From: Laetmonice hystrix
Lineage: Eukaryota
NCBI GenBank assembly: GCA_965235115.1
Contig: OZ249436.1
Coordinates: forward strand, 6,512,001-6,576,000
Direction: 5' to 3'
Length of the DNA stretch: 64,000 bases
Shown: one piece after another, positions 4,912-64,000 of the stretch
Layout of the letters: every line of letters starts with the position of its first letter
How positions within the stretch are numbered: the stretch's first letter is position 1
Made by a program: the position numbers and the translations under genes
Notes under the pieces: generated by a model
Databases searched by the model: none
What the model was told of the DNA's origin: nothing
Seen by the model: only the letters and a program-made list of their open reading frames with translations

Positions 4912-5275
4912 TGAGTGAGACCCTGCGGCAGTTTGTGTGGGAGGGCTAGTAAAGGCCCTTCCTGTGTCTCCACAAGGACCGTTGGCGACGCCCACCTGCT
5001 GAATGTTTTACCATACAGACGCCCTTAACACAAGGTAATTCTGACCAACAGTCCCACCCTGGCGACAGGTAATCAGGAAAGGTGAGGGTTTGTCTCACAC
5101 GTGGTCTGACGGTTGCTGACACTGCTCATTACCCGGTCTAGGTGCCTGTCATGCCAACCGTCAGCCTCGGAGACAATGTCAAGTAATGGCATTCCATATC
5201 TTGGCACCTACCTGACACTGCAAGAGATTCGTGGAACCCTGACATTGTAAGAGACTGGAGAAATGGGAAACTTAA

Positions 5276-5800
5276 AGGGAGTCGTAAAATTCATTTTTTC
5301 GAGTTATGGCAGTCTTAGAAACATATGATTCGCATACCTTGGACTCCCAGTAACATCATGTGAGACTGTTATGGCCCAGCGACCAGTATTTAGTAAGGAA
5401 AATATGCCAAATCTCTCGCAAATACATAGCTCAGAATTAGCGAGGGGCCCACAGGATATTTGAGTTGGCCGCGGTCGTGCGATGATGACGCGTGATCACG
5501 TGACTTCCGGGTGTGGAAGGGAATCTCCCTCTAGTCTAGCATTGACCTAAATACCGCATGTACACCCGGAAGTCACGTGATCACGCGTCATCATCGCCCG
5601 ACCGCGGCCAACTCAAATATCCTGTGGGCCGCTCGCTAATTCTGAGCTACGTATTTGCGAGAGATTTGGCATATTTTCCTTACTAAATACTGGTCGCTGG
5701 GCCATAACAGTCTCACATGATGTTACTGGGAGTCCAAGGTATGCGAATCATATGTTTCTAAGACTGCCATAAATAAAAAAAATGAATTTTACGACTCCCT
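5276..5800. mobile_element. Foldback MITE (non-autonomous DNA transposon), Kolobok-like
   Basis: Near-perfect ~239-bp inverted arms (5276-5514 and 5562-5800) around a 47-bp spacer. TTAA flanks both ends (5272-5275, 5801-5804). Termini are AGGG...CCCT, matching the Kolobok pattern rather than piggyBac CCY...RGG. Confidence 0.9.
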
Positions 5801-7948: not shown

Positions 7949-10900
7949 ACTGAGTGTGAACGCTGTGGTAGGAGGGTTCTCTTGACTGAGTGTGAACGCT
8001 GTGGTAGAAGGGTTCTCCTGACTGAGTGTGAACGCTGTGGTATGAGGGTTCTCTTGACTGAGTGTGAACGCTGTGGTAGGAGGGTTCTACTGACTGAGTG
8101 TGAACGCTGTGGTAGGAAGGTTCCCCTGACTGAGTGTGAACGCTGTGGTAGGAGGGTTTTCCTGACTGAGTGTGAACGCTGGGGAAGGAGGGTTCTCCTG
8201 ACTGAGTGTGAACGCTGTGGTAGGAGGGTTCCCCTGACTGAGTGTGAACGCTGTGGTAGGAGGGTTCCCCTGACTGAGTGTGAACGCTGTAGTAGGAGGG
8301 TTCTCCTGACTGAGTGTGAACGCTGGGGAAGGAGGGTTCTCCTGACTGAGTGTGAACGCTGTGGTAGGAGAGTGTGAACGCTGTGGTAGGTTCCCCTGAC
8401 TGAGTGTGAACGCTGTGGTAGGTTCCACTGACTGAGTGTGAACGCTGTGGTAGGAGGGTTCTCCTGACTGAGTGTGAACGCTGTGGTAGGAGGGTTCTCC
8501 TGACTGAGTGTGAACGCTGTGGTAGGAGGGTTCCCCTGACTGAGTGTGAACGCTGTGGTAGGAAGGTTCCCCTGACTGAGTGTGAACGCTGTGGTAGGAG
8601 GGTTCCCCTGACTGAGTGTGAACGCTGTGGTAGGAGGGTTCTCCTGACTGAGTGTGAACGCTGTGGTAGGAAGGTTCTCCTGACTGAGTGTGAACGCTGT
8701 GGTATGAGAGTTCCCCTGACTGAGTGTGAACGCTGTGGTAGGAGGGTTCTCCTGACTGAGTGTGAACGCTGTGGTAGGAAGGTTCTCCTGACTGAGTGTG
8801 AACGCTGTGGTAGGAAGGTTCCCCTGACTGAGTGTGAACGCTGTGGTAGGAGGGTTCTCCTGACTGAGTGTGAACGCTGTGGTAGGAAGGTTCCCCTGAC
8901 TGAGTGTGAACGCTGTAGTAGGAGGGTTCTCCTGACTGAGTGTGAACGCTGTGGTAGAAGGGTTCTCCTGACTGAGTGTGAACGCTGTGGTAGGAGGGTT
9001 CTCCTGACTGAGTGTGAACGCTGTGGTAGGAGGGTTCTCCTGACTGAGTGTGAACGCTGTGGTAGGAGGGTTCCCCTGACTGAGTGTGAACGCTGTGGTA
9101 GGAGGGTTCTCCTGACTGAGTGTGAACGCTGTGGTAGGAGGGTTCTCCTGACTGAGTGTGAACGCTGTGGTAGGAGGGTTCCCCTGACTGAGTGTGAACG
9201 CTGTGGTATGAGAGTTCCCCTGACTGAGTGTGAACGCTGTGGTAGAAGGGTTCTCCTGACTGAGTGTGAACGCTGTGGTAGGAGGGTTCTCCTGACTGAG
9301 TGTGAACGCTGTGGTAGGAGGGTTCTCCTGACTGAGTGTGAACGCTGTGGTAGGAGGGTTCCCCTGACTGAGTGTGAACGCTGTGGTAGGAAGGTTCCCC
9401 TGACTGAGTGTGAACGCTGTGGTAGGAAGGTTCTCCTGACTGAGTGTGAACGCTGTGGTAGGAAGGTTCCCCTGACTGAGTGTGAACGCTGTGGTAGGAA
9501 GGTTCTCCTGACTGAGTGTGAACGCTGTGGTAGGAAGGTTCCCCTGACTGAGTGTGAACGCTGTGGTAGGAAGGTTCTCCTGACTGAGTGTGAACGCTGT
9601 GGTAGGAGGGTTCTCCTGACTGAGTGTGAACGCTGTGGTAGGAAGGTTCCCCTGACTGAGTGTGAACGCTGTAGTAGGAGGGTTCTCCTGACTGAGTGTG
9701 AACGCTGTGGTAGAAGGGTTCTCCTGACTGAGTGTGAACGCTGTGGTAGGAGGGTTCTCCTGACTGAGTGTGAACGCTGTGGTAGGAGGGTTCTCCTGAC
9801 TGAGTGTGAACGCTGTGGTAGGAGGGTTCCCCTGACTGAGTGTGAACGCTGTGGTAGGAGGGTTCTCCTGACTGAGTGTGAACGCTGTGGTAGGAGGGTT
9901 CTCCTGACTGAGTGTGAACGCTGTGGTAGGAGGGTTCTCCTGACTGAGTGTGAACGCTGTGGTAGGAGGGTTCCTCTGACTGAGTGTGAACGCTGTGGTA
10001 GGAGGGTCCTCATGACTGAGTGTGAACGCTGTGGTAGGAGGGTTCCCCTGACTGAGTGTGAACGCTGTGGTATGAGAGTTCCCCTGACTGAGTGTGAACG
10101 CTGTGGTAGGAGGGTTCTCCTGACTGAGTGTGAACGCTGTGGTAGGAGGGTTCCCCTGACTGAGTGTGAACGCTGTGGTAGGAAGGTTCCCCTGACTGAG
10201 TGTGAACGCTGTGGTAGGAGGGTTCCCCTGACTGAGTGTGAACGCTGTGGTAGGAGGGTTCCCCTGACTGAGTGTGAACGCTGTGGTAGGAGGGTTCTCC
10301 TGACTGAGTGTGAACGCTGTGGTAGGAGGGTTCTCCTGACTGAGTGTGAACGCTGTAGGAGGAGGGTTCCCCTGACTGAGTGTGAACGCTGTGGTAGGAG
10401 GGTTCCCCTGACTGAGTGTGAACGCTGTGGTAGGAGGGTTCTTTTGACTGAGTGTGAACGCTGTGGTAGGAGGGTTCCCCTGACTGAGTGTGAACGCTGT
10501 GGTAGGAGGGTTCTCCTGACTGAGTGTGAACGCTGTGGTAGGAAGGTTCCCCTGACTGAGTGTGAACGCTGTAGTAGGAGGGTTCTCCTGACTGAGTGTG
10601 AACGCTGTGGTAGAAGGGTTCTCCTGACTGAGTGTGAACGCTGTGGTAGGAGGGTTCTCCTGACTGAGTGTGAACGCTGTGGTAGGAGGGTTCTCCTGAC
10701 TGAGTGTGAACGCTGTGGTAGGAGGGTTCCCCTGACTGAGTGTGAACGCTGTGGTAGGAGGGTTCTCCTGACTGAGTGTGAACGCTGTGGTAGAAGGGTT
10801 CTCCTGACTGAGTGTGAACGCTGTGGTAGGAGGGTTCTCCTGACTGAGTGTGAACGCTGTGGTAGGAGGGTTCTCCTGACTGAGTGTGAACGCTGTGGTA

Positions 10901-11720
10901 GGAGGGTTCTCCTGACTGAGTGTGAACGCTGTGGTAGGAGGGTTCCCCTGACTGAGTGTGAACGCTGTGGTAGGAAGGTTCCCCTGACTGAGTGTGAACG
11001 CTGTGGTAGGAGGGTTCCCCTGACTGAGTGTGAACGCTGTGGTAGGAGGGTTCCCCTGACTGAGTGTGAACGCTGTGGTAGGAGGGTTCTCCTGACTGAG
11101 TGTGAACGCTGTGGTAGGAGGGTTCTCCTGACTGAGTGTGAACGCTGTAGGAGGAGGGTTCCCCTGACTGAGTGTGAACGCTGTGGTAGGAGGGTTCCCC
11201 TGACTGAGTGTGAACGCTGTGGTAGGAGGGTTCTTTTGACTGAGTGTGAACGCTGTGGTAGGAGGGTTCCCCTGACTGAGTGTGAACGCTGTGGTAGGAG
11301 GGTTCTCCTGACTGAGTGTGAACGCTGTAGGAGGAGGGTTCCCCTGACTGAGTGTGAACGCTGTGGTAGGAAGGTTCTCCTGACTGAGTGTGAACGCTGT
11401 GGTAGGAGGGTTCTCCTGACTGAGTGTGAACGCTGTGGTAGGAGGGTTCTCCTGACTGAGTGTGAACGCTGTAGGAGGAGGGTTCCCCTGACTGAGTGTG
11501 AACGCTGTGGTAGGAGGGTTCCCCTGACTGAGTGTGAACGCTGTGGTAGGAGGGTTCTCTTGACTGAGTGTGAACGCTGTGGTAGGAGGGTTCCCCTGAC
11601 TGAGTGTGAACGCTGTGGTAGGAGGCCTGACTGAGTGTGAACGCTGTAGGAGGAGGGTTCTCCTGACTGAGTGTGAACGCTGTGGTAGGAGGGTTCCCCT
11701 GACTGAGTGTGAACGCTGTA
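7949..11720. repeat. 36-bp minisatellite, ~105 copies
   Basis: Unit CTGACTGAGTGTGAACGCTGTGGTAGGAGGGTTCYC; source of the 1276-aa and 976-aa repeat ORFs. Confidence 0.99.
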
Positions 11721-11735
11721 GAAGGAGAACATCAG

Positions 11736-19251: not shown

Positions 19252-20998
19252 ACCTGGACAGAATGCAAGCCACGTTGACCCAAAGATAAACCTATTGTCC
19301 TGTTTATAATATCGAGGACATTCATTCCAACCTGCCCAGGCTATCAAACCCACACACTGAAATACCTTTAAGACTTCAGTAACATGCACAGGAGACAAAG
19401 GACTGAGATGGCATCATCACGACAGCATGATCCCATTCTGGGGGAGGTGAACGACCCACTGAAAGAATTAAATGTAGCGATGGAGGAGTCGGATAATCTC
19501 CCTACCGTCGAAACCCAGCTACATGTCTGTACTACAACTCGCCCATATCTTGGCCTTCTCGGCCCGAGATTGGATGTGCTCACATGGCTGTGTTTGCCCT
19601 CTCTGTGCTCAGCTAATGTCAGACTCAACTATGTAGAAGAATGCAGGTGTGGAGAGTTTAGGGAATGGGTCCAGGCTTCATGTTGCCGAGGAGTACTTAG
19701 TGCAGTTGGGCATGAGAGAAGTGCCTCATTCTGTTGCTGAGAGCCGAGCTCGCCCACTGAACACGTGATAGGTTGGGAGTGCTTGCTGAATGAAACTAAA
19801 GCTTGGTACGCTAGGCACTCCATCACTGACGGAAGCCTGGGGTCCCCACCCTGACTCCCTCTCACACACGTTAAACCCTAACAGTGTGATGTCTATCTCT
19901 TCTACATTAAGGAATCAGGTTCACATGGTCATGGTAAATTAATGGAAATTAGATACATATTTCGTGTTCAATGATGTTCAAATGAAAGCGACTATGTGTA
20001 CCACATGTCGTGTAAAGATTTATGCTAACTATTCGAAGGCTTTCAGTCCGAACCAACCTCGATAGATGTTTTAAAAGTGATTGAATGGGTCTCTCAGATT
20101 GCTACCTGATGGCAGTTACCAATCTTGAAAGTAGGTGGCTCGGCCCAGGTGAATGTAAAAAGGGGGGCACTGAAGAATGTGGTCTATATTTCGAGAGGTA
20201 AACGGGTTCTCCACCAAACCACTTTTGTACAAATTAAACCCCTCGAGCTGTTCGTGGTTAGAGCTGCTTCCTCCAAGTTGTTTTCACGAGCCGTCCATCC
20301 AGTGCCAAATAAAAACGCGACCCTTAACCCCTGGTAATCACAAACTCCTTCTGCGATCGCACAGGATGTAAAACAAATAAACAGGCTACTGCTGGTGCTC
20401 CTCGGAATTTCCTTTATCATTTCTGATTATCCGTTCCAAAGACCGAGAGGTCGGTTATATTGAATTGTGGGGCGGGTTGGCGAGCTATGTGGGTGGTCTG
20501 AGAGGGGACGGATTCCCCTCCTATGACACCCGTGACCGGGGATCGATATCATGCACACTGTTAATATTGGTATTGCAACTATGGTCGTCGGCCTACCGGG
20601 CAGGGCGCTGAATGAAAGGACCCTGTGCTCTGACAGTCGGATGAGACGGACCATCGGAAAACACACCCGGCCCTCCGTGATGTGCCCACAGGGACTGGGC
20701 ATAATTGGTCTGAGAGTATGCCATCGCAAGGTCTGAGAATACTTGTTAGGACGTATATCTTAAAGTTAGTGGTTCTATCATAGAGCTCTTGTCGTATCAC
20801 GTGGACAATCGTTTTGACCTATTTATAAGGGGTTTACTAAAGATTCACCAGAAATGCAAAAAGGGCACAACCCCCTATTAAGGGACTTTGTCGAATTCTT
20901 TCTTCAGGAAAGTTAGAATTTTTAATTATATGGGTGAGTGTTGTTGTGTTGATTGTATTGGAATATCCTATTTAAATATATTTAGAGGAACCTTGCAA

Positions 20999-23230: not shown

Positions 23231-25104
23231 ATGGACGGGGATCGCAATCACTGCATAGCAATATTCATAAATAATCTGTGGCATATACAGAATGTCCTTA
23301 AAAGGAAGCATCTATGCAAATGGTAATAGTTGATTACTTTGGTAGGGTTATATCAATATTCATATCAGACCAGGATGATTCCCGGACTATCTGTTTTTAA
23401 ACGCGGTGTATGTTATTTTACAGCTGGGAGATTAACTATTTAAGCTAATGTTTGTGTCTGTACTGATTAGATGCCTTCCTTTCATTGACCGAAAGGGACC
23501 TTAATAATTGTGATCTGCATGCAATACATTATCAGGACTTTTTTAATCATGGAGTTGGGTTAAAAGTTGGTCATTTATAGCGATTCGGCAGTCTGCACTG
23601 ATTGCATAGTGACAGCTCAATGAGATTAACACTCATTGAATAGAAATACCACGCAAAATATAGTGAGAATATTTTCATGACTTCATCGTGAGGCTGCTGA
23701 AAATAATGAACCCAGAGTAGGAAGTGAATAGTTTAACGTGGTGAATAGTTTAACATGGGTGGGATAACGTAGTCGACGAGAAATATGACAGATTGGGTTC
23801 TGCATGATATGCCCCCCCCCCCAGTATAAGCAAATATGCATGTTCGATAATACATTGATACGCACATTTAATTTACTGGGATTCACATAGTGAATGGCAT
23901 TCACAGTGAATGGCATTTCGCAGTTTGGTAATCTCATACAAGAATAGTCAGCCTACACTTTAAAAGTGGTGTTAGAAATCATGTCGCATTTTAACGAGTT
24001 TAGTTAAAAAATTAAATAGCCGGTAAACAGAGAATCCCATTTGTGTTGATTATTTTGCGATTTTTAAACAATTTTTTACTCCTACTACTGCTACCTGCTA
24101 CTCTTTATTTTGGTTGCAGATCCCAACCTCAGTGAGTGCATTTTGAACTGAAGCCTTACATAATGCTGCCTCTACACAGGCTGACTGGTCTACCCGCTAG
24201 TTTAATTTTCGTTTTACATTGATGTATTCATGATGCTCTGTCGGAATACTGCGTGACTTTGCGAGCGTAGATCTTGACAGTCTCATAAGACAGGGGCTGA
24301 GCTGAGGAGTGTCAATAAGGGATTCATAGTTGAGAGCAGTTAATCGCGACTGGAGGTAGGAATGAAGCCATGTTGGCTCTGGTGTCATTCGCTCGAGTCT
24401 ATTTACTGGGAGTAGTTAATCCACTCTGATGAACATGTGCCAAGATGATGCTATCAACTCCCCCTGCCGTCAGTCCACAGCAGTATCACCCGGCCTACCA
24501 TCCTCATACCTTATATGGTAGGCAGCTATCCCACCATGCATGTTAACTGGCTCCCCATTGGGTCCTTTCGTTCTGACGTGATCAATTTCAATCACAATCC
24601 GGTTTAATCCAGATCAAACTGCAGGGAGTCGGGGAACCCATCGGGGCAGAGATCCAGGGATCTGCTGGGAAGTTTTTAATGTGAAAAAATTACCAAGCGT
24701 GAAAAAAATACACCAGGAAATGAAAAAGAAAAAGATCTGTTGGAAGTGCGACACACTGCCATATGCAGGTTTTCTAAAACAAAATTTATGAGGAGTGTTT
24801 CATTATTGATTCGGTCCCTGTGCTGGGAATACAAGGTCATTGTTTGTGACGTGACTTCTGGCCAGGTATCAGGGTGGACAAACCACGAGGGAGTTCTCCT
24901 TGTCTTACACCGCCAAGGTCACCATCTGTGGCACGAGTTTCACTGCCTGTCCTTCTCAGTTTAAACTTTACTTTTCCGTACAGTCATTTAATCCAATTGG
25001 CCACTGTTGTCTACTGCTGATCTCTGTTGGGCAAGGTAGATCCTCGTGGTAGAATCCCCACCATATTTTGGTCGTAAGAACTGAGAATCTGTCACTATTC
25101 CGTA

Positions 25105-39031: not shown

Positions 39032-39795
39032 TGTGAATGTATAGGTGGATCTGCTTACATTGGGCTGCCCGCCTGTGAATGTATAGGTGGATCTGCTTAC
39101 ATTGGGCTGCCCGCCTGTGAATGTATAGGTGGATCTGCTTACATTGGGCTACCCGCCTGTGAATGTATAGGTGGATCTGCTCACATTGGGCTGCCCGCCT
39201 GTGAATGTATAGGTGGATCTGCTTACATTGGGCTGCCCGCCTGTGAATGTATAGGTGGATCTGCTTACATTGGGCTGCCCGCCTGTGAATGTATAGGTGG
39301 ATCTGCTTACATTGGGCTGCCCGCCTGTGAATGTATATGTGGATCTGCTTACATTGGGCTGCCCGCCTGTGAATGTATAGGTGGATCTGCTTACATTGGG
39401 CTGCCCGCCTGTGAATGTATAGGTGGATCTGCTTACATTGGGCTGCCCGCCTGTGAATGTATAGGTGGATCTGCTTACATTGGCCGCCCGCCTGTGAATG
39501 TATAGGTGGATCTGCTTACATTGGGCTCCCCGCCTGTGAATGTATAGGTGGATCTGCTTACATTGGCCATGGGCTGCCCGCCTGTGAATGTATAGGTGGA
39601 TCTGCTTACATTGGGCTGCCCGCCTGTGAATGTATAGGTGGATCTGCTTACATTGGCCGCCCGCCTGTGAATGTATAGGTGGATCTGCTTACATTGGGCT
39701 GCCCGCCTGTGAATGTATAGGTGGATCTGCTTACATTGGGCTGCCCGCCTGTGAATGTATAGGTGGATATCTGCTTACATTGGGCTGCCCGCCTG
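39032..39795. repeat. 42-bp minisatellite, ~18 copies
   Basis: Unit TGTGAATGTATAGGTGGATCTGCTTACATTGGGCTGCCCGCC. Confidence 0.98.
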
Positions 39796-41250
39796 CATGA
39801 TAACAGGTGGACGTAACACCTGAGCAAACCGGGCCCGTAAGCTTGTCACTCTTTATCCTCCAAACATTGATGGTGCCAAATTGATGACATCAATACCTAG
39901 CCCTGAGGCTAGTTCGGTGTATCTCCGGTAGCCCTTGTCCATGTGCAAAAAGCCCCCCACCGACCCAGCCGTCACCCCCACTGCCAGCCTCCTGCCACGC
40001 CCGCCAGCCTCTTCAGTTGATGTTGTCAGTCACAGAGGTCTGGTCGACAAAGTGGCTAATCTACTTTCCGTGTAGAGTGGTAAAGGTGGTCAGAGGATGG
40101 CCGCCAGCAGTACAGCGGCCGTCGGTGCCAACATGATATTGCTGACATCCTTCGACCATTACTGTCAGTCGAGCAGGCAGGGTGTGGCCGGACGCCCATG
40201 TCCAGCCACTGTCCAGTCCACCAGCCATGTCAAGCGGACCATGTCCCGGTCAGTTGAGAGATGTCCCGCTCGGCCGGCCAACATGTCCCTCGGCTGGCGA
40301 GCTGACATGAGGGGCGTCAGAGGCCCAACTACCCGACAACTCCGGAGTCACACCCCTACCTGACGGTGAACCACGTGAACAGGGGCACGCCACCTCCCAG
40401 CCTGTCCCGTATATATTGATTATGACCGTTTTGTTATTATATTATTATTGGAGTACCTCCAACTCAGTCTATATTAAAGACGTTAACTCATGACTTATCG
40501 TTTGTACATGATGTTATCAAGAAGACCGATGTCTGTGACATTTGTATTTTAAGGTGATACCAATCTCATTATCATTACTGTGAGAGGTCACGTTCCAGAG
40601 ATCATTCATCATCCTCATCTAATTCCCACTGCATCCCAAGTTATGTTACATTAAATATTCCTAAGCAGCCAGGGGCCTTGGTGTTGCTGCATGGTTTCTA
40701 CGTCAGACAATTGGCCATTGTCTCAGCTGCTGCATCTTTAAGATCATAGATCATCTGGAGTATTATTCTTTGGATCCTATCTTAGTGGCGATCGATGACA
40801 AGGGTATTGATCTGGTGTATTGTGAAGTATTACACTGCATTGTCTGACCAGAGATCAGTGGGTGCACCTGCCGTGTCTCTGGTTTTGTTATAATGTAACC
40901 TAGACTGAATTATTGATGGTACGCCTGCAGCAAGCCCTTGGCCTGCTATTGTATTCGAAACATGAGTTAGTACATAAATAACCAGATAAACATCAATATC
41001 TGACAAAGATATGGCACGTCCTAATCTCTAACAAATTCTCCTGCAGAATATCATGACACCAAGAACAGTGAGGCTTTTGAAAACGTGAATTAGATGTGTG
41101 TTCTTTATTCGCGTTTTTTTCTCAGCCCCAGAGGTGAGCCTCGAGTCCCTTGAGACACAGGGAGGAACGTAGCGTGTGTTGATATTGTGAAACGTTACAC
41201 GCCTCGGAACGGGAAGTAAATGTGGTGATATGAGCGGTCACGTGCTTCTG

Positions 41251-43201: not shown

Positions 43202-44476
43202 ATATTGGTGAATAATCTACAGTGTGATTGCTTGATGGGTATATTGGTGAATAATCTACAGTGTGATTGTTTGGTGTTTCAGGTACTGTATATTGGTGAA
43301 TAATCTACAGTGATTGGTGTGTCAGGTATTTTGGTGAATAATCTACAGTGTGATTGGTATTTCAGGTATTTAGGTCAATAATCTACAGTGTGATTGGTGT
43401 TTCAGGTATTTTGGTCAATAATCTACAGTGTGATTGGTGTTTCAGGTATTTTGGTCAATAATCTACAGTGTGATTGGTGTTTCAGGTATTTTGGTAAATA
43501 ATCTACAGTGTGATTGTTTGGTGTTTCAGGTATATTGGTGAATAATCTACAGTGTGATTGGTGTTTCAGGTATATTGGTAAATAATCTACAGTGTGATTG
43601 TTTGGTGTTTCAGGTATTTTGGTAAATAATCTACAGTGTGATTGGTGTTTCAGGTATTTTGGTAAATAATCTACAGTGTGATTGTTTGGTGTTTCAGGTA
43701 TATTGGTAAATAATCTACAGTGTGATTGTTGTTTCAGGTATTTTGGTGAATAATCTACAGTGTGATTGGTGTTTCAGGTATATTGGTGAATAATCTACAG
43801 TGTGATTGTTGTTTCAGGTATTTTGGTGAATAATCTACAGTGTGATTGGTGTTTCAGGTATATTGGTGAATAATCTACAGTGTGATTGTTTGGTGTTTCA
43901 GGTATTTTGGTAAATAATCTACAGTGTGATTGGTGTTTCAGGTATGGTGAATAATCTACAGTGTGATTGGTGTTTCAGGTATATTGGTGAATAATCTACA
44001 GTGTGATTGTTTGGTGTTTCAGGTATATTGGTGAATAATCTACAGTGTGATTGTTGTTTCAGGTATTTTGGTAAATAATCTACAGTGTGATTGGAGTTTC
44101 AGGTATATTGGTGAATAATCTACAGTGTGATTGGTGTTTCAGGTATTTTGGTGAATAATCTACAGTGTGATTGTTTGGTGTTTCAGGTATATTGGTAAAT
44201 AATCTACAGTGTGATTGTTGTTTCAGGTATTTTTGTAAATAATCTACAGTGTGATTGGAGTTTCAGGTATATTGGTGAATAATCTACAGTGTGATTGTTT
44301 GGTGTTTCAGGTATATTGGTGAATAATCTACAGTGTGATTGTTGTTTCAGGTATATTGGTGAATAATCTACAGTGTGATTGGAGTTTCAGGTATATTGGT
44401 GAATAATCTACAGTGTGATTGGTGTTTCAGGTATTTTGGTGAATAATCTACAGTGTGATTGTTTGGTGTGTTTCAG
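43202..44476 (+). repeat. 40/44-bp minisatellite, ~30 copies, ending at the splice acceptor of the next exon
   Basis: Unit GTATWTTGGTRAATAATCTACAGTGTGATTG(TTTG)GTGTTTCAG. The final copy ends ...GTGTGTTTCAG at 44476. Confidence 0.97.
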
Positions 44477-45727
44477 GGTGGCATGTACAAGGGGAGGATG
44501 CGGTGACCCATGGCACGAATGTCACGTGGCTATCATCCTCACGACTTCTGAGTCAGGTCCTCAGAACTTCCGCCACCACCACTGCAACCACCGCCACCGC
44601 CACCACCGGACAGAGTCAGCATTTCCCAACAAATCCACGATTATCGTGGATATCTACCACATCCAACAGGACGGAGGTCTCCAACACCAACTCACACGTA
44701 CCAACTACTTCTACACCCCACTCATATAACGTCACTGTCAGCTCCAACATCCTCAACCAACCTCCTACATCAAACAAACCTCCTGGCACTCCCAAAGATA
44801 ACATTTTATACAAACTCACACATATTGCCATAGGTTATAATGAATCATTCAAGTCCCAAGGGGCACCCGGTGTCCCGTCTGCTCTGGTGATGAACAACAA
44901 CAACACCACTGACCCTTTAATCAGAGACACTGGCCAGAGGCTCAGCAACAAAACTAAAGTTACTCAGCCTCACAGGTCTGCACCCATGGGCCGAGAGGAC
45001 CTTACCGCTAGTCATAGCCAGAGCAAAGGATCCTTACCGGGCCTCGGGTCGACTGTAGGTGCTTTGCTGCTGCCCTCTAGTGTTGATTTGAGGGATTCTG
45101 AGACTAACGAGTCTCAGTCATTATACGAGCCAAAGGAGGGAGTTTCTGAGGGACACAGCGAGGCTGCTGGGTCTCCTCATTATTTGAATTCGACGCCATC
45201 CAGCAAAAGTTCCCGCCAGACTGTAGGGCGGACCGACTCCGGCCAGGAGCAGGGCCTGTCGCAGAGAGAAAACAATGCACTGCAAAATTCCTTAGGAGTT
45301 AAGGAAAATTCTAGAGGGGTGTCAAAGGAGGGCCCCCTAGGTGAGTTTACAGGGGGGTCAGACATGGCTGCCAGCCCAGACTCCTACCTGGATTCCATAT
45401 CAGCATCCTCCGATGGTGACACAGGAGATGATGGGGATGAAGAGTACGAGATCCCCTTGTTCTCCATACTGGACGATGACATGGACGTCAACGTGACCCT
45501 ACCGGAGGACGAGGAGCTGAGGACTAACAACACTTCCCGTAACGCTACCTGGTGGCGGACGGAGGTGGATGATGACCCCCCAGAGGGCACGGCCCCTCCA
45601 GGGGGTAATTCTAGTTGGGGTAATGACCCCAACGCCAGCTCCTTGCACTCCGACCTACAGGGTGACGATAGTGAGGAAGGTGCAGAGGACAGAGATATAA
45701 CTAAGGACGACCAATACTATCTCAGAG
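44477..45727 (+). CDS. Large internal coding exon (417 codons, phase 1-1) of an uncharacterised mucin-like/acidic secreted or cell-surface glycoprotein
   Basis: This is the only long non-repetitive ORF (inside 44455-45843). It is bounded by acceptor TTTCAG| at 44476 and donor AGAG|GTGAGC at 45727/8, after which the sequence turns AT-rich. Translation WHVQGEDAVTH...DDQYYLR is S/T-rich then D/E-rich, has no Cys and has about 15 N-x-S/T sequons by manual count. I could not identify the other exons. Confidence 0.82.
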
Positions 45728-46440
45728 GTGAGCAAACATTAAATTTCATATCGACAGTTGTTTTTATGTCTCAGAGTGTTTTACCACTTTTATTTGTATT
45801 TTATTGCAGCAATTTGTCCTTTTTATTACAGCACAGGCAATAACGCCTGTATCTACAGTCGTCAAAAACTCATAGACTTATAGCAAGGCACGCACGTTTC
45901 TCCATCACATAGAGTGATATAGAGTGTCTTATTATTAATTTCGACGGTCATTTAAAGATAATAGAAGATTGAGTGTAGATGAAGAAAGAAAAACAGATAA
46001 AAAAATAAATTGGTGTCATCATTCTTCACACAAAAGACAGCAGCCTCTGATTTGATCAATAATCCCAATATCACAAGTCGTCGCCCATCAGTCAAAGTAC
46101 TTTATATGTTGATGTTCTTTGTCCGTCCCTACTCACTGCTCGTGCTAAACCTCAATGAGAGCTTGGTATTTTTTGTCTGGGCCGACTGGTATCCGAGATT
46201 CCTATACCCGGGAGAGTTGGCATTGTCTGTGTGTCTGTGGTATTAGTCAGACTCCACACCTCCCCAAGGTAAGTGTCCGGGCTGGGGGTCGCTGCTGGTG
46301 GGTCCATTGTGTGTGGGCACCGCCTGGGGTCTGTTGGCGGGTCACCTTTCACCCCCACATCAATGGCTCAGTCAGGATCAAGAGCCATGGGACAACTGGG
46401 GGCAGAATGTCCGGACGGCAATGTGAGGGAAGCTAGAGAG

Positions 46441-49090: not shown

Positions 49091-49356
49091 GTACATATAA
49101 TGGACATCTGGTGACGCTGATTGCCAAGCGTCATTACCTGTGGTAAAACGGAATTCTGTCTCCGTTTGATGGCCCCTGCCAGACCCTTGTTCAAGAGTAT
49201 AATAACTTACGGCATTACAGAAAAGCTTAGGAATGGTTCGTCTCTGTATTTGCAAGGTATAGGCGTGTGTAAATATTGTAGGTTTTGTCGGCAGTGGTAC
49301 CAACCTCTGAGGCATTCACATTCAGCTAGATCATCAACTCTGTTTCCAAAGGTTAA

Positions 49357-49696
49357 AGGTGCTATTCGTCTCGCACAGAATGGCATTTCTCCTATCATAC
49401 ATTGTGCACATAGTACTAGAAAAAATTCCTACCGATACCTTTGGCCTGATAAACCTTCTATTAGTTCATGTGCAGCATTTGAAACCTATCTCGGTGCGCA
49501 CCGAGATAGCGCCATTTCCTATGGAGGGGCGTGTCAGGGTCTCCACAGGCCTTCTGAGAGAGCCCCATTTGTGCCGTTATCCATGAACAATTTTGATTTC
49601 CTTTGTTGTGAATCTATTTCCATGATAGGTGGGATCACATAAACGTCAACAAAATAAAAAATAAAATAATTGAACTTTTTTTCACGAATAGCACCT
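49357..49696. mobile_element. 340-bp non-autonomous DNA transposon, Kolobok-like
   Basis: Perfect 13-bp TIRs AGGTGCTATTCGT (49357-49369) and ACGAATAGCACCT (49684-49696), with TTAA on both sides (49353-49356, 49697-49700). Confidence 0.85.
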
Positions 49697-49973
49697 TTAA
49701 GACTAGATTGGACTTATTATGGTACTGAACAGGGGAGGTTAATTGGAGTGTTTCCGGGCCAATGGGGGTGGGCAGTGATAAACGTGGCCACAACGAAGCT
49801 ACTCAGAACGAAAGAGTTCCTGTGAATGGCATCCTGCCCCTCGTCCAACCAGCACGCAACCATCAGTACTCCATTGACCTTTCTACCTGCGTGCAGCTCC
49901 AAGGTCAGCAAGGTGCTATATTCTTCACCTGGATTGATGAGAGAGTTGTTGAGGTAATTGATATAGGAGGAAA

Positions 49974-54879: not shown

Positions 54880-55018
54880 CCTCCGTGAGGCCGTGCCGCA
54901 TGGTTTATGGTAAGATTCCCCGGTTTGAGATTAAGACATTTGTTGTAAATCCTTCGATTCAGATCAATGACCACCAAGGGACCACCAATAAATCTACACT
55001 CGACCAATTTACACCCCA

Positions 55019-55535
55019 GTGTGGTGTGTGGGGTGTAGTGGGTGCGATGGGTGGGTTACGGTGTGTAGGATGGGGTGGGGTGGGGTGTGAGGGTGCGGTG
55101 TGTCGAATTAGGTGGGGTGGGCTGTTAGGGTGTGTGGGAAGGGGTAAGGTGGGGTTTGTGGGGTGCGGTGTGGGGTGGGGTGGGTTGGTGTGCGAGTGTG
55201 CGGTGTGTGGGATGGGGTGAGGTGCGGTGTGTGGGAAGGGGTGAGGTGGGGTTTGTGGGGTGTGGTGTGGGGTGGGGTGGGTTGGTGTGCGAGTGTGCGA
55301 TGTGTGGGATGGGGTGAGGTGCGGTGTGTGGGAAGGGGTGAGGTGGGGTTTGTGGGGTGTGGTGTGGGGTGGGGTGGGTTGGTGTGCGGTGTGTGGGATG
55401 TGGTGAGGTGCGGTGTGTGGGATGTGGTGAGGTGCGGTGTGTGGGATGGGGTGAGGTACAATGTGTGGGGTGCGGTCTGTGGGATCTGGTGAGGTGCGGT
55501 GTGTGAGGTGCGGTGTGTAGAGTAGCGGTGGGGGT
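55019..55535 (+). repeat. G/T-rich low-complexity tract with a 97-bp internal repeat; G-quadruplex-prone
   Basis: Many GGG/GGGG runs; TGTGTGGGAAGGGGT recurs at 55131, 55228 and 55325. Confidence 0.9.
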
Positions 55536-56002
55536 TAGCATGACCGTCCAGCACACCCTGCCCGGACGTCAGTCAGGCCGGGAGGAGGGGTATTTATCAT
55601 TAGTTCACGTGTGAGTGTTGACCCTCAGAGCCCCGAGCTGGGAGTTTTATATGACACTCATTGTTATAGGAGTGTGTCACACGGGCGGCGGTGACCATCT
55701 GGGAGATGCCGACTTAACGTGGGCCGCTAGAACCGAATTCCCCTGCTGGTCGGCGGTAGCCTACATGTTGGCTGCATCGCCACTTGGGCTAAACATGCGG
55801 CTAGATCAATAGGCTGTCTTATTAGGCACACAATGCCTGGGGGTAGGAGGTCCTTGCTGGAATACATTGCCCCATTAGACATCCATACCTTGCTGGGCCC
55901 TCACAGCCAAACCAAATCATCCTGTCAGCTTGTCCAGATTCTCGCTGTCACATCAGATCGGTTCCATTCCCGACCAGGGTCCTGGTTTAACCTTGACGTC
56001 GT

Positions 56003-56266
56003 CATTCCACAGCTGTCAACAATTAACGGATATAGGTCGTGATTCCACAGCTTTCAGCTGTTATTGGGTATAGGTCGTGATTCCACAACTGTCAACTGTT
56101 AACGGATATAGGTCGTGATTCCACAGCTGTCAACTGTTAACGGATATAGGTCGTGATTCCACAGCTGTCAACTGTTAACGGATATAGGTCGTGATTCCAC
56201 AGCTGTCAACTGTTAACGGATATAGGTCGTGATTCCACAGCTTTCAACTGTTATCGGATATAGGTC
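56003..56266. repeat. 38-bp minisatellite, ~7 copies
   Basis: Unit GGTCGTGATTCCACAGCTGTCAACTGTTAACGGATATA. Confidence 0.95.
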
Positions 56267-56925
56267 AAAATCCTACTCCGAGTTTTCACAAATAATAGCA
56301 CTCCAAATTCAGGGATTAAGATTAGAAAACATCAATACATAATTTATTGTCTTTTTTTCGATCTGTATAATATGATTCCTACAACCTCATCTGGCGCAAC
56401 CAAGATATTTGCGAATATTGTGACACAAGGATGCGCTCTGCGAATATTGTGACACAAGGATGGCCTCCCTGTCAGATTGCGCTCTTCATCCCCAGTACAT
56501 CAGAGTTTTTTTTAGTGAATTTCTTCCTTCCCATATATTTGGAAAAAAAAACGATGACGTGATGTTATTATCAGCGGTTAATGACCCCAATTAACATACC
56601 CCTGAATGTAGAGTATCCTCAAACGTTTTAAGGTGCATGTCTTATGTAATCTTGACTGTAATAGGTAATACAAATATTTCAAATCTCTTAGATAAAAAAA
56701 CGTAACTGGTTTCAGAGCTTTCGACTCGTGGCATGCAATACAGCATTTAAATCAGTGGTAGATGAAAAGAACAGAAAAAAACGCGATTGGTGCTAATTGG
56801 ACAGCCGTTTGGGGGTAGATGACAGGCTGAGTGGTAGGGACGGCTACGTGTTGAGAGAATTGTTGGCCAAGATAATCCTTGTCCCCAGCCCTACTTCATT
56901 TGTATTAGGTCTTGCCTTGCCCTGA

Positions 56926-58207
56926 TTAAAGATCACAACTTTCAGCCAGTACTCTCACCATCACCATTATCTGTGAGTTACTTTCTTCTTCCACCCACCA
57001 CTGTATTAAAGATCACAACTTTCAGCCAGTACTCTCACCATCACCATTATCTGTGAGTTACTTTCTTCTTCCACCCACCACTGTATTAAAGATCACAACT
57101 TTCAGCCAGTACTCTCACCATCACCATTATCTGTGAGTTACTTTCTTCTTCCACCCACCACTGTATTAAAGATCACAACTTTCAGCCAGGACTCTCACCA
57201 TCACCATTATCTGTGAGTTACTTTCTTCTTCCACCCACCACTGTATTAAAGATCACAACTTTCAGCTAGTACTCTCACCATCACCATTATCTGTGAGTTA
57301 CTTTCTTCTTCCACCCACCACTGTATTAAAGATCACAACTTTCAGCCAGGACTCTCACCATCACCATTATCTGTGAGTTACTTTCTTCTTCCACCCACCA
57401 CTGTATTAAAGATCACAACTTTCAGCTAGTACTCTCACCATCACCATGATCTGTGAGTTACTTTCTTCTTCCACCCACCACTGTATTAAAGATCACAACT
57501 TTCAGCTAGTACTCTCACCATCACCATGATCTGTGAGTTACTTTCTTCTTCCACCCACCACTGTATTAAAGATCACAACTTTCAGCTAGTACTCTCACCA
57601 TCACCATGATCTGTGAGTTACTTTCTTCTTCCACCCACCACTGTATTAAAGATCACAACTTTCAGCCAGGACTCTCACCATCACCATTATCTGTGAGTTA
57701 CTTTCTTCTTCCACCCACCACTGTATTAAAGATCACAACTTTCAGCTAGTACTCTCACCATCACCATGATCTGTGAGTTACTTTCTTCTTCCACCCACCA
57801 CTGTATTAAAGATCACAACTTTCAGCTAGTACTCTCACCATCACCATGATCTGTGAGTTACTTTCTTCTTCCACCCACCACTGTATTAAAGATCACAACT
57901 TTCAGCTAGTACTCTCACCATCACCATGATCTGTGAGTTACTTTCTTCTTCCACCCACCACTGTATTAAAGATCACAACTTTCAGCTAGTACTCTCACCA
58001 TCACCATGATCTGTGAGTTACTTTCTTCTTCCACCCACCACTGTATTAAAGATCACAACTTTCAGCTAGTACTCTCACCATCACCATTATCTGTGAGTTA
58101 CTTTCTTCTTCCACCCACCACTGTATTAAAGATCACAACTTTCAGCTAGTACTCTCACCATCACCATTATCTGTGAGTTACTTTCTTCTTCCACCCACCA
58201 CTGTATT
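56926..58207. repeat. 80-bp minisatellite, 16 copies
   Basis: Unit ATTAAAGATCACAACTTTCAGCYAGKACTCTCACCATCACCATKATCTGTGAGTTACTTTCTTCTTCCACCCACCACTGT, with an exact 80-bp period. Confidence 0.99.
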
Positions 58208-58349
58208 CACGTGATTTCATCTCCAGAAAAAGTCAATGGCACGCAAAGTCCAACCTGACTGCGGTTCCGACTGGAAACCGTTCTCAAGAATAAACTACAT
58301 CTTTCAAAGTAATGAGAATCTTCCGTGAATGATTAAACCTAAACACTGT

Positions 58350-58549
58350 AGACCCTCAGCACACGGGCAGTGGGTGCAGTACTGGATTGTCAGACCCTCA
58401 GCACACGGGCAGTAGGTGCAGTACTGGATTGTCAGACCCTGAGCACACGGGCAGTAGGTGCAGTACTGGATTGTCAGACCCTGAGCACACGGGCAGTAGG
58501 TGCAGTACTGGATTGTCAGACCCTGAGCACACGGGCAGTAGGTGCAGTA
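58350..58549. repeat. 42-bp minisatellite, ~5 copies
   Basis: Unit AGACCCTSAGCACACGGGCAGTAGGTGCAGTACTGGATTGTC. Confidence 0.94.
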
Positions 58550-58766
58550 TTGTCAGGATCTACCATGAAAACCCGGTATTTTCATCTGTTCAGTCAGATT
58601 GCCGTTCGCTGCCACAGATCAAATTTGTCACGATTAGTCTAGATTAAATGATTCTGAAAAATTGCTTTGCAACCAAAGCATACAACCGGCTCATTATAGC
58701 ATACAGTATAACAAGTTTAATTCTGAACGTTTGAATGGCCCGACTGATCTGGTTAAATATATGTCA

Positions 58767-59402
58767 TGGTTGAGATTAGAATCCGGATGGATTCCGAATC
58801 CAACCGGCTGAGTTCGGAATTCCAATCTCAACCGGCTAAGTTCGGAATTCTAATGTGGAAATTAATTATATTCTCAACCTAGGTACCAAATTGAAATCAG
58901 ATGAATCAATTGTTCTAATTTCAATCTTGACATATATGTACGATTTCAGTCTGAGTCTCAGCCGGTTAAGACTGGAATTCCTATCTCAGCCGGTTAAGAC
59001 TGCATGGAATTCCTATCTCAGCCGGTTAAGACTGCATGGAATTCCTATCTTAGCCGGTTAAGACTGGAATTCCGATCTCAACCGGATAAGACTGGAATTC
59101 CGATCTCAACCGGATAAGACTGGAATTCCGATCTCAGCCAGTTAAGACTGGAATTCCGATCTCACCCGGATAAGACTGGAATTCCGATCTCAACCGGATA
59201 AGACTGGAATTCCAATCTCAGCCGGTTAAGACTGGAATTCCGATCTCAACCGGATAAGACTGGAATTCCGATCTCAGCCAGTTAAGACTGGAATTCCGAT
59301 CTCAACCGGATAAGACTGGAATTCCAATCTCAGCTGGTTAAGACTGGAATTCCGATCTCAGCCGGTTGAATTCGGACTCCATCCGGATTCTAATCTCAAC
59401 CA
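58767..59402. mobile_element. MITE-like element with ~58-bp TIRs and an internal 28-bp tandem array
   Basis: Left arm TGGTTGAGATTAGAATCCGGATGGATTCCGAATCCAACCGGCTGAGTTCGGAATTCCA matches the reverse complement of 59345-59402 with 3 mismatches. The internal array GACTGGAATTCCGATCTCARCCGGWTAA spans ~58957-59370. The TSD and superfamily are not resolved. Confidence 0.75.
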
Positions 59403-59652
59403 GGACGATACATTGTAATACACCATTTCTATCGTTCTTACACCACTGCAAATGAGCATCGGTATCTTCATATTAGCAGGACTCAAAATGAGGACTACCC
59501 ATCCATCATACGGATTCATACCTGGAGGTGCTTCATATATCAGTCCTCTGTTTACAACATGCATGCCACTGCCATCATCAATTACTGACAACAAAATTAT
59601 TGTCAGTTCACTACCATCATTTCTCCAGTCATATTGATATGGTGTTATCCAG

Positions 59653-59873
59653 GGGCGGGTTGCACTAACGGTCCTACGGGTTGGGACTGAATTTAGGACC
59701 AGTCCTACTGAGGGTCATGCCCCCCAGGCACTTCATATCTATCTGCGTTTCAATAGCCCTTGAGATATAAAAGTTGACGAATTATATTTAAATTATGGAT
59801 ATTGGCCCCTGCTGAATGTAGGACTGGTCCTAAATTCAGTCCTAACCCGTAGGACCGTTAGTGCAACCCGCCC
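59653..59873. mobile_element. MITE with ~56-bp TIRs, PIF/Harbinger-like
   Basis: GGGCGGGTTGCACTAACGGTCCTACGGGTTGGGACTGAATTTAGGACCAGTCCTAC (59653-59708) matches its reverse complement at 59818-59873 with 1 mismatch. Termini are GGGC...GCCC and the flanks are CAG and CTG (CWG). Confidence 0.85.
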
Positions 59874-59981
59874 CTGGATCCTACTAGAGTCATTGCTATG
59901 ATATCAAATAATCTCGGGTTGGAATCCGGATTCTATACGCAGTGAGAGAATTGTTTGAAGTACAACACTTTGTAGGAGTCT

Positions 59982-61513
59982 ATAGTAACCCGAGTCTATG
60001 GTAAGGTTATAATGGACCACGATTAGTGGGAGAGCTAGGGTCATGTACTGAGACTCTCGAGGTGGTAGTGCAGTCAATAAGAAACCGTTTAGAACATTAT
60101 ATCGATGTTTATAGTAACCCGAGTCTATGGTAAAGTTATAATGGACCACGATTAGTGGGAGAGCTAGGGTCATGTACTGAACCTCTCGAGGTGGTAGTGC
60201 AGTCAATAAGAAACCGTTTAGAACATGTTTGTAGTAACCCGAGTCTGTAGTAAAGTTATAATGGAACATGATTAGTGGGAGAGCTAGGGTCATGTACTGA
60301 GACTTTCGAGGTGATAGTGCAGTCAATAAGAAACCGTTTAGAACATTATATCGATGTTTACAGTAACCCGAGTCTATAGTAAAGTTATAATAGAACACGA
60401 TTAGTGGGAGAGCTAGGGTCATGTACTGAGACTCTCGAGGTGGTAGTGCAGTCAATAAGAAAACGTTTAGAACATTATATCGATGTTTACAGTAACCCGA
60501 GTCTATGGTAAAGTTATAATGGACCACGATTAGTGGGAGAGCTAGGGTCATGTACTGAGACTGTCGAGGTGGTAGTGCAGTCAATAAGAAACCGTTTAGA
60601 ACATTATATCGATGTTTACAGTAACCCGAGTCTATGGTAAAGTTATAATGGAACACGATTAGTGGGAGAGCTAGGGTCATGTACTGAGACTCTCGAGGTG
60701 GGAGTGCAGTCAATAAGAAACCGTTTAGAACATTGTATCGATGTTTACAGTAACCCGAGTCTATGGTAAAGTTATAATGGACCACGATTAGTGGGAGAGC
60801 TAGGGTCATGTACTGAGACTCTCGAGGTGGTAGTGCAGTCAATAAGAAACCGTTTAGAACATTATATCGATGTTTATAGTAACCCGAGTCTATGGTAAAG
60901 TTATAATGGACCACGATTAGTGGGAGAGCTAGGGTCATGTACTGAGACTGTCGAGGTGGTAGTGCAGAGTCAATAAGAAACCGTTTAGAACATTATATCG
61001 ATGTTTATAGTAACCCGAGTCTATGGTAAAGTTATAATGGACCACGATTAGTGGGAGAGCTAGGGTCATGTACTGAGACTCTCGAGGTGGTAGTACAGTC
61101 AATAGGAAACCGTTTAGAACATTGTATCGATGTTTACAGTAACCCGAGTCTATGGTAAAGTTATAATGGAACACGATTAGTGGGAGAGCTAGGGTCATGT
61201 ACTGAGACTCTCGAGGTGGTAGTGCAGTCAAAAAGAAACCGTTTAGAACATGTTTGTAGTAACCCGAGTCTGTAGTAAAGTTATAATGGACCACGATTAG
61301 TGGGAGAGCTAGGGTCATGTACTGAGACTCTCGAGGTGGTAGTGCAGTCAATAAGAAACCGTTTAGAACATTGTATCGATGTTTACAGTAACCCGAGTCT
61401 ATAGTAAAGTTATAATGGACCACGATTAGTGGGAGAGCTAGGGTCATGTACTGAGACTCTCGAGGTGGTAGTGCAGTCAATAAGAAACCGTTTAGAACAT
61501 TATATCGATGTTT
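59982..61513. repeat. 129-bp tandem repeat, ~12 copies
   Basis: AGTAACCCGAGTCTATGGTAAAGTTATAATGGACCACGATTAGTGGGAGAGCTAGGGTCATG... repeated; 43-aa periodicity in the minus-strand ORFs. Confidence 0.98.
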
Positions 61514-61607
61514 TACCCGCGTAATGTGTAATATGTCGGGTGCCCCTTACCGCCTCCCGTCCTGTCACCTACTATCGTGGCACTCTCATACACGATAAAC
61601 CATCACC

Positions 61608-61810
61608 CAGTGGCGGATTTAAGGGGGGGGGGGGGGTTACTGGGGTTGCACCCCCACCACCCTCCCCCCCCGTTAGGAAGTAATTTTTCTTTTTTCCTGC
61701 TTGAAAGGTTCACACAGAACATACACAGCCCCCCCCCCCCCCCACGCACCCACAACCCCCCCCCCCCCTTGGCACCCCACAACCCCCCGTTGGCGCAAAC
61801 CTGGCGCCTG
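61608..61810. mobile_element. 203-bp GC-run-rich MITE with CAG...CTG ends and a 6-bp TSD (hAT-like)
   Basis: Starts CAGTGGCGGATTTAAGGGGGG and ends CCTGGCGCCTG (degenerate right TIR). ATCACC directly flanks both ends (61602-61607, 61811-61816). Confidence 0.65.
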
Positions 61811-62290
61811 ATCACCTCACGAACATTGACAACCTATAGCACTGCACTTGTCACCCTGCCCATTTCATACCATGAACATTACCATCATTATTATAACGAC
61901 CAAGTACACGGCACCCATTAGGCACCAGCACTTTCAGCAATCAGCGACAACGTCTCAATACACAATGTTTATTTTTGTGTACTTAAGTTGCTGGAGGCCT
62001 TTTTCTCAATTCGCCATCAAAGTGTTAGCGAGGCTTTGAAATTAGTGCGTTGAAGAAAGCACAGGTCCGTGAACAGAGTGTCACAATTACCTTCCTCCGG
62101 TACTTGTGTCGTTGCACCAGTCCACCCAGCTACGCCAACACATGTACTCGTCAGACGGGGAAAGCTGTGAAGATCAGAAACCGCAGAAAGAAAAAATTAC
62201 ATTAAATCATTTGGAAAATGAGGTTCTACCTATTATCTGTAAGAATAACAGCATGTTGGGGGAAGAGATGTCATATTGCTGCCTTTCATT

Positions 62291-62472
62291 TTGAAACCCC
62301 CAGACTGTACCTCAGAACTGGGGTCACTGCATTGAAACCCCCAGACTGTACCTCAGAACTGGGGTCACTGCATTGAAACCCCCAGACTGTACCTCAGAAC
62401 TGGGGTCACTGCATTGAATCCCCCAGACTGTACCTCAGTAAGGTAACTGTAACTGGGGTCACTGCATTGAAA
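62291..62472. repeat. 41-bp minisatellite, ~4 copies
   Basis: Unit TGAAACCCCCAGACTGTACCTCAGAACTGGGGTCACTGCAT. Confidence 0.93.
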
Positions 62473-62695
62473 GCTGTTATTGGAGGAAAATTGAAATATG
62501 TGGCAGAGAAACAATGCAGCACTCCTCCAGGTGCAGATGTCATTTGAGCTGACCTCACATGGAGTATTCCATTCGGGGTAAGCACCGCTGTACAATGAGC
62601 AATCTGCCGTAGCTGGGAGGGGGTACAGGGTTGGTGTCACCTGCCTCATTGTTTACTGTTCCATTGTGTGACAGGATACCTCCCCCCGTATGGTC

Positions 62696-62818
62696 GGAGG
62701 AGGAAGAGGAAGGGGGAGAGGAAGGAACCTCCTCCTCCTCCTCCTCCCCTCCTCCTCCCTTTCCTCCTCCATCTCCTCCCCCCATTCCTCCTCCTCCTCC
62801 TCCTCCTCCTCCTCCTCC
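62696..62818. repeat. Polypurine (GGA-like) tract abutting a polypyrimidine (CCT)n tract
   Basis: GGAGGAGGAAGAGGAAGGGGGAGAGGAAGG-AA-CCTCCTCCTCC...(CCT)n. Confidence 0.9.
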
Positions 62819-64000
62819 GGCACAGCTGTAAAGTGTAATTGCTAACGACACCTTCAGTCATCGGTCCGTCAGGAAGGCAGTGTCCCAGATTTGAATCTTC
62901 TCTTGGTCTTATTCAGATAGGTAATGGGTCGCCCTGCCTCTAATCTCCTCCCGTAATTCTTGGAAGTATTACAGGGAGAATAACCCAACGAGAAATTGAG
63001 GTAAAATTGCCTGAAATCTCACAATGCGACGATAACAAGTTGCAACTTAATTGTGAGTATTTTAATCGTCCAGTAATTTATTTAACGTTTAGGAATGATG
63101 TCAGACAAGCAAGCAAGCTCAATCCACACAAACATAGTTGGATACTTGTAAACAGGTTAAACCTTTCCCATGAAAGTTCCATCCAGGCAAGACTAGAAAG
63201 CATAGTACAGAAGATGTACAAGATCCTCAGGCTGTCATTAAAACAACCTTGGTAAGAAGTCGTTTTGATTGCACTAACAATAGTCTCAGACTCAGTGGCC
63301 GTCAGCGTCCGCAGCCAAATTAAAACAGTTCAACCTTCCCCAATAGGTTTGATATTTTGGTTTTCTCCGATGTTTTCCGTCATAAAACTATTTGTTCGTG
63401 TATTATATCTTGATTGAACAGAACTTGTTAATGTATATTGCCCAGTTAACTTGATGTCAGTTCCGCTTAGTTTGTTAACTCTTTGTCCTTGTTGTATATC
63501 TAGTGCTAGAACCGGATTTGGAACAAAAGAATATCATTAATTCTTGAATGAACAAAGCTGTGTGTTATATAGGGCTTACGGTTGGGAGATTGGGTACGTC
63601 AAAACCGTCAGCTTGTTTCAGAGCTCAGGGTGGAAAAAAACAAAGAACGCATTGAGTTGGTATTAAGAATCATGTTGAACGTCAGGCCTTGTCACCTCCG
63701 CAGCTGAAATAGATGGTTTTGTGGGAATTCGTTCCATTATTCAACACAGCTTGTTGGAAGAATGTTGTATTCTGTTATCAAGTAGAACTCGTCCATCGTG
63801 ACAGCTATGACAACCTGCGCTTAAACAAAATTTAACTTGAAAACTAGGGCGTGAAATAATAATGATGACATGTCTATCAATATAATAGGATATTCTCCTG
63901 CTTACGAATTAAAAGTATGCGTTATACAATATATAAAAACGATCATTAAAACATGGATGCGTGACTAGAAGAAATACCCATGCACAAATTTAAGAAAAGT

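Follow-up and report, generated by a model that had tools for sequence, protein, structure and literature searches.

Mirages, head-to-tail arrays of near-identical short units that carry AG/GT signals, have been described in the amphioxus genes for Adh3, the globins BflGb6 and BflGb9, troponin C and PGBD5, and are reported not to disturb splicing (PMC3087553, PMC3902484). The 37-bp VNTR in intron 7 of human F7 likewise places identical donors in tandem; the first alone is used, and splicing stays normal (PMC1557585). Tandem tiny exons with a repeated motif that are included together are described for the P exons of avian fast troponin T (PMC7581897). Many tandem same-phase exon copies are also found in the arthropod Dscam clusters (PMC5740500). 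Composite terminal exons arise through intronic polyadenylation, as in IgM, where a weak donor competes with polyadenylation (PMC10651852).

We analyzed a 64,000-nt stretch of DNA (the window) containing an 80-bp minisatellite whose unit would hold an acceptor and a donor on either side of a putative microexon. The array and its variable positions are as follows.

56925–58207 (+): minisatellite, period 80, 16.0 copies, 98% matches, zero indels (TRF)
56946–56972 (+): 27-nt segment, first copy
58146–58172 (+): 27-nt segment, last copy
Unit position 23: variable, C in 6 copies and T in 10
Unit position 26: variable, T in 13 copies and G in 3
Unit position 44: variable, T in 9 copies and G in 7

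Each of the 16 units has the layout TTTCAG, 27 nt, GTGAGT, and ACTTTCAG is present in 16/16 units, followed by the 27-nt segment and then by GTGAGT. The GT...AG spacer between segments is 53 nt long and invariant (15/15 spacers). TRF and a tally of the units confirmed this arrangement of 16 × 80 bp as the initial annotation had given it. Its statement that three variable sites lie inside the 27 nt was also borne out (3/80 columns per unit), as was its reading of phase 1 as the only usable phase: phase 1 is open in 16/16 copies, TGA interrupts phase 0 in 7/16 and TAG interrupts phase 2 in 10/16. A 27-nt segment, being a multiple of three with an open frame, fits the length range of microexons (3–27 nt).

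The 16 copies fall into four sequence types (7, 3, 3 and 3 copies) that are connected through three point changes, of which one is synonymous and the other two are non-synonymous. The copies encode three peptides that differ by one residue. One peptide is common to copies 1–3, 5, 15 and 16, and the altered peptides are all internal. The near identity of the copies points to a recent origin. A 3-nt microhomology, ATT, stands at both ends of the array (56925–56927 and 58205–58207), as expected for tandem duplication at microhomology. The array is not a single long open reading frame, since stops occur in all six frames, and we rejected the unit as a dispersed repeat, its longest match elsewhere in the window being at most 11 nt. 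Long open frames do occur in another array of the window: a 36-bp array of about 3.8 kb (7949–11727) has stop-free frames of more than 1000 codons on both strands because its unit length is divisible by three.

Like the amphioxus mirages, the array is built of head-to-tail near-identical short units with AG/GT signals, and a plain acceptor mirage is also found in the gene considered here (43202–44476, see below). As described, the amphioxus mirages involve one boundary each, whereas the unit described here would hold an acceptor and a donor, the boundary being putative. Among the matches listed for open-access text, none showed a unit comprising a complete microexon together with its two splice sites.

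Upstream of the array lies the gene to which we infer that it belongs, represented by a large exon and the array at its acceptor.

44477–45727 (+): large coding exon, 1251 nt, 416 codons, one open frame, phase 1 at both ends
43202–44476 (+): 40-bp acceptor array of the large exon, an ordinary mirage in the same gene

The stretch 44477–45727 is real coding sequence. One protein among 6922 candidates is a homologue of near-equal length: P0002 is 56% identical over 426 columns, with the similarity running from residue 1 to residue 415 and matching the predicted ends of the exon. No further relatives were found among longer proteins, among shorter proteins or in a full HMMER scan. In read contigs covering 44470–46430, all four exonic indels have lengths divisible by three (9, 12, 3 and 6), and the two indels in the intron are both single bases. 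The contigs are genomic, without joints, and come from four runs of one sample and study, none of them listed as RNA, so that they do not bear on expression. Since the window may derive from this very sample, the indels count as allelic evidence and not as independent support. The exon product, 25% Ser/Thr and turning acidic further on, carries 15 N-glycosylation sequons and lacks both Cys and a membrane segment, a composition that suggests an extracellular, mucin-like part of an orphan protein. It contains no Pfam family, an Atlas search with it gave no match, and no locus emerged from metagenome contigs. Neither the three protein searches nor the full HMMER scan returned a protein that reveals what follows the large exon after the donor at 45727. 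No convincing candidate emerged when the upstream side was searched for an exon encoding a signal peptide and the downstream side for one encoding a membrane segment.

In the 40-bp array, 28 extra copies of TTTCAG/GTA precede the real acceptor, TTTCAG/GGT. An acceptor that is certain has thus been amplified 28 times, which indicates that the mirage process acts in this gene. The direct abutment of TTTCAG and GTA in these 28 copies resembles a zero-length exon or a recursive splice site. The donor at 45727 closes the large exon in phase 1, so that the phase match with the 80-bp array proposed in the initial annotation holds.

Splice signals were scored with two approximate matrices, one with a vertebrate-like acceptor and one with a short tract. 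The best in-frame AG-exon-GT pair was taken for each of 29 arrays on both strands, leaving out two low-complexity arrays. Among the resulting 58 array-strand readings, the 80-bp unit ranks first with the short-tract matrix and second with the vertebrate-like one; the short-tract runner-up is the same unit on the − strand, where a 12-nt pseudo-exon scores 4.4 bits against 5.3. For the 80-bp unit alone, the score was reached in 1.1% or 0.13% of 1500 shuffles, depending on the matrix. When any of the 13 arrays of sufficient length was allowed to match on the + strand with phase 1 open, the figures rose to 34% or 8%, and with either strand allowed to 58% or 14%. The window-wide + strand level of 8–34% bears out the warning in the initial annotation that chance could produce such motifs. 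At copy 1 the acceptor scores 3.1 bits and the donor 2.2, where the large exon reaches 4.2 and 4.9, respectively. The array donor is poor on its exonic side. That all three variable sites fall within 27 of the 80 columns has P = 0.036, computed post hoc; in an ordinary 42-bp array at 39032, three shared variable columns are likewise clustered, within 6 nt. The exon-like layout of the array is therefore suggestive, and not significant, as a departure from chance.

The 36,075 nt of unique sequence in the window contain ten pseudo-microexons of length 3n that score as well or better (four on the + strand and six on the −, two of them with a common donor). The best small 3n candidate on the + strand is a single-copy 12-nt microexon at 24120–24131 with a GTGAGT donor (7.5 bits), no other AG in the 60 nt upstream and TGC motifs before its acceptor; it may belong to the gene of the large exon. 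Other high-scoring small exon candidates, 41126–41133 (+, 8 nt) and 20908–20933 (+, 26 nt), are not multiples of three. On the − strand, a strong 57-nt exon candidate (337–393) has its donor at the edge of a 65-bp array (1–340) whose unit resembles the donor region of that exon, making the array a possible second mirage.

The flanks of the 80-bp array contain three further features.

56922–56926 (+): CTGAT, resembling a branch site, A at −21 relative to the acceptor of copy 1
58146–58258 (+): copy 16 read-through, candidate terminal exon, phase 1
58289–58294 (+): AATAAA, 30 nt past the TGA

CTGAT precedes copy 1 only, because the repeat boundary cuts through the motif; in later copies the sequence is CTGTAT. 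Two TGC motifs closely precede CTGAT. Since 23 of 159 acceptor-like control sites also have a branch-like motif before them, CTGAT is a weak clue for copy 1. At the other end, phase 1 of copy 16 passes through GTGAGT into unique sequence and continues for 36 codons to a TGA at 58256–58258. The AATAAA that follows is the sole one in unique + strand sequence from 54988 to 64000, and an ATTAAA is found at 58332. Of the 264 acceptor-like sites in the window, 2 lead into an open frame of at least 25 codons with AATAAA no more than 60 nt past its stop, and 8 do so when the distance is widened to 150 nt; these thresholds were picked after the site had been seen. Among stop triplets, 1.6% have an AATAAA no more than 40 nt away. 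The GC3 of the read-through part is 0.39 versus 0.56 for the large exon, and the implied 3′ UTR would be very short. The reading of copy 16 to a stop and AATAAA suggests that the seed of the array may have been a terminal or composite exon. Together with the branch motif, which like the stop and AATAAA is absent from the initial annotation, it favors a real acceptor at this site, as judged from sequence.

The only other site with such a frame and a close AATAAA, a 139-codon frame at 49221, was set aside since by eye it enters an inverted-repeat element. MITE-like inverted-repeat elements were noted by eye at 58768–59410, 59650–59875, 49354–49700 and about 5270–5800, one of which contains an internal 28-bp minisatellite. 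No convincing next exon was found in 58208–64000. Searches of Pfam with eight candidate exon peptides gave no match for seven and one sub-threshold match (E 0.076). Two phase-compatible exon candidates on the − strand, 62559–62825 and 62091–62164, have no Pfam match, and the former is Gly-rich and lies over a CCT microsatellite; if real, they would bound the + strand gene.

We prefer to explain the array as a minisatellite of the mirage type that arose from a genuine acceptor of the large-exon gene and in which one copy works. The array with its boundaries and motifs, and the coding status and phase of the upstream exon, are established; use of the acceptor, the choice of copy and the link to this gene are our inferences. 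The weights given to this and other explanations are our judgement from the counts and not a computed posterior, and we hold this one to be evenly poised between right and wrong. An 80-bp stretch containing a real acceptor would have been duplicated at the 3-nt microhomology and then expanded to 16 copies through ordinary repeat turnover, leaving a single functional copy and the remainder as passengers, for which the F7 repeat, with its identical tandem splice-site copies, provides a model. The F7 case differs in that it concerns a donor only, is mammalian and has been tested experimentally. With a 27-nt microexon as the seed, copy 1 would be the likely working copy because only copy 1 keeps the branch motif, and it would splice to an exon beyond those identified in the window. 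With the beginning of the last exon as the seed, the working copy would instead be copy 16, adding 36 more codons before the stop and AATAAA, and GTGAGT would be coding. A composite exon would unite both: the protein would continue when the weak donor is used and end upon read-through. As in known composite terminal exons, a polyadenylation signal closely follows a weak donor, here some 115 nt downstream of the last one; unlike the exon of IgM, the one at copy 16 is a prediction. We divide our confidence in the mirage roughly evenly between a microexon and a terminal or composite exon.

The score rank of the array, the phase match, the branch motif, the stop and AATAAA, the amplified acceptor of the large exon, the peptide common to the end copies and the silence of the known mirages favor the preferred explanation; the high window-wide chance level, the ten matches in unique sequence, the modest splice scores, the commonness of branch motifs, the post hoc thresholds, very short 3′ UTR and lower GC3 of the read-through, and the failure to find a next exon count against it. 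The proposal in the initial annotation that a microexon was amplified by minisatellite expansion is thus plausible and has a named precedent in the mirages, while its boundary is unproven and subject to the chance level given above.

It is quite possible, if short of probable, that the array is an ordinary intronic or intergenic minisatellite in which splice-like motifs arose by chance and which is never transcribed as an exon. The opportunity for such motifs is large, since 31 array regions with periods up to 129 bp cover 29,353 of the 64,000 nt (46%), and the family-wise P on the + strand is 0.08–0.34. The similar pseudo-exon on the − strand of the same unit, the ten equal or better matches in unique sequence and the clustered variable columns of the array at 39032 all agree with chance, and one synonymous and two non-synonymous changes fit neutral drift. 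What chance would require is the conjunction of several mild coincidences, namely a top-two score, the phase, the branch motif and a stop with AATAAA of the kind seen at 2/264 sites. A working multi-copy cassette of any kind is, by comparison, improbable. One form, distinctly unlikely, is a cassette of variable number, in which splicing removes the 53-nt spacers as short introns and leaves a varying count of 9-residue repeats, with alleles also differing in copy number. Both splice motifs are intact and the frame is preserved in all copies, the three changes are confined to the 27-nt part and spare the 53-nt part (P = 0.036), and the P exons of troponin T offer a precedent, although these number up to seven, with demonstrated regulated inclusion, and the array is known from its sequence. 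The initial annotation had suggested that the spacers may be too short to splice, an unsafe assumption because introns of such a length are normal in some annelids: the median intron measures 57 bp in the annelid Capitella and 66 bp in Dimorphilus (PMC7854359), both near 53 nt; for the same reason splicing of the spacers stays conceivable. The variable number of 9-residue repeats that the annotation also raised did not gain support: the internal copies have no canonical branch motif, and their branch-position A lies only 32 nt from the donor, where less than 50 nt means steric hindrance in human (PMC5740500). Moreover, the near identity of the copies marks a recent origin, sixteen copies of a hydrophobic, β-prone 9-mer would be an unlikely product, and the known mirages yield no such transcripts (PMC3087553, PMC3902484).

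The initial annotation had also raised a nascent Dscam-like cassette in which the spacers cannot be spliced and each transcript takes one of the 16 copies. This is very improbable. The 32 nt from donor to branch position would block adjacent copies under mammalian rules, so the spacer blocks neighbors at most: skipping a single copy leaves a 133-nt intron, and steric hindrance cannot enforce a choice of one in 16. A length of 3n means that double inclusion keeps the frame, so frame provides no pairwise exclusion either. Mutual exclusion in Dscam depends on docking-selector RNA pairing. Searches within the window for docking-type pairing with the unit found 8/8 flanking regions to be no better than shuffles, 2 to 12 of 15 of which equalled the unit, and the start of the array folds on itself no better than shuffles (z +1.03). 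The array resembles the Dscam clusters in its many tandem same-phase exon-like copies. Dscam variants have diverged and form parts of folded domains, whereas the array copies are near-identical stretches of nine codons that comprise four sequence types and three peptides one residue apart.

A further version of the multi-copy idea, also improbable, is that the minisatellite captured a microexon in full, including its two splice sites, and that the spacers are spliced, so that a surface glycoprotein would gain variable 9-residue repeats. The number of repeats would then be set by allele length together with splicing, and read-through of the last copy would produce a truncated, polyadenylated form.

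Rather than a set of interchangeable tiny exons, the array probably reflects repeat instability, whose by-products of this kind are known, or else chance. As a mirage it would add a case to a known phenomenon, its membership depending on a putative boundary. Should it prove a passenger mirage or a chance repeat, it would matter little, being one more case among the many in this genome. The three marker changes among the 16 copies mean that long RNA reads would reveal which copy the spliceosome picks. The mirage literature consulted proposes a minisatellite route for intron gain without demonstrating it. If several copies of the 80-bp unit were found to be included, a minisatellite would have been caught in the act of giving rise to a tandem array of microexons.
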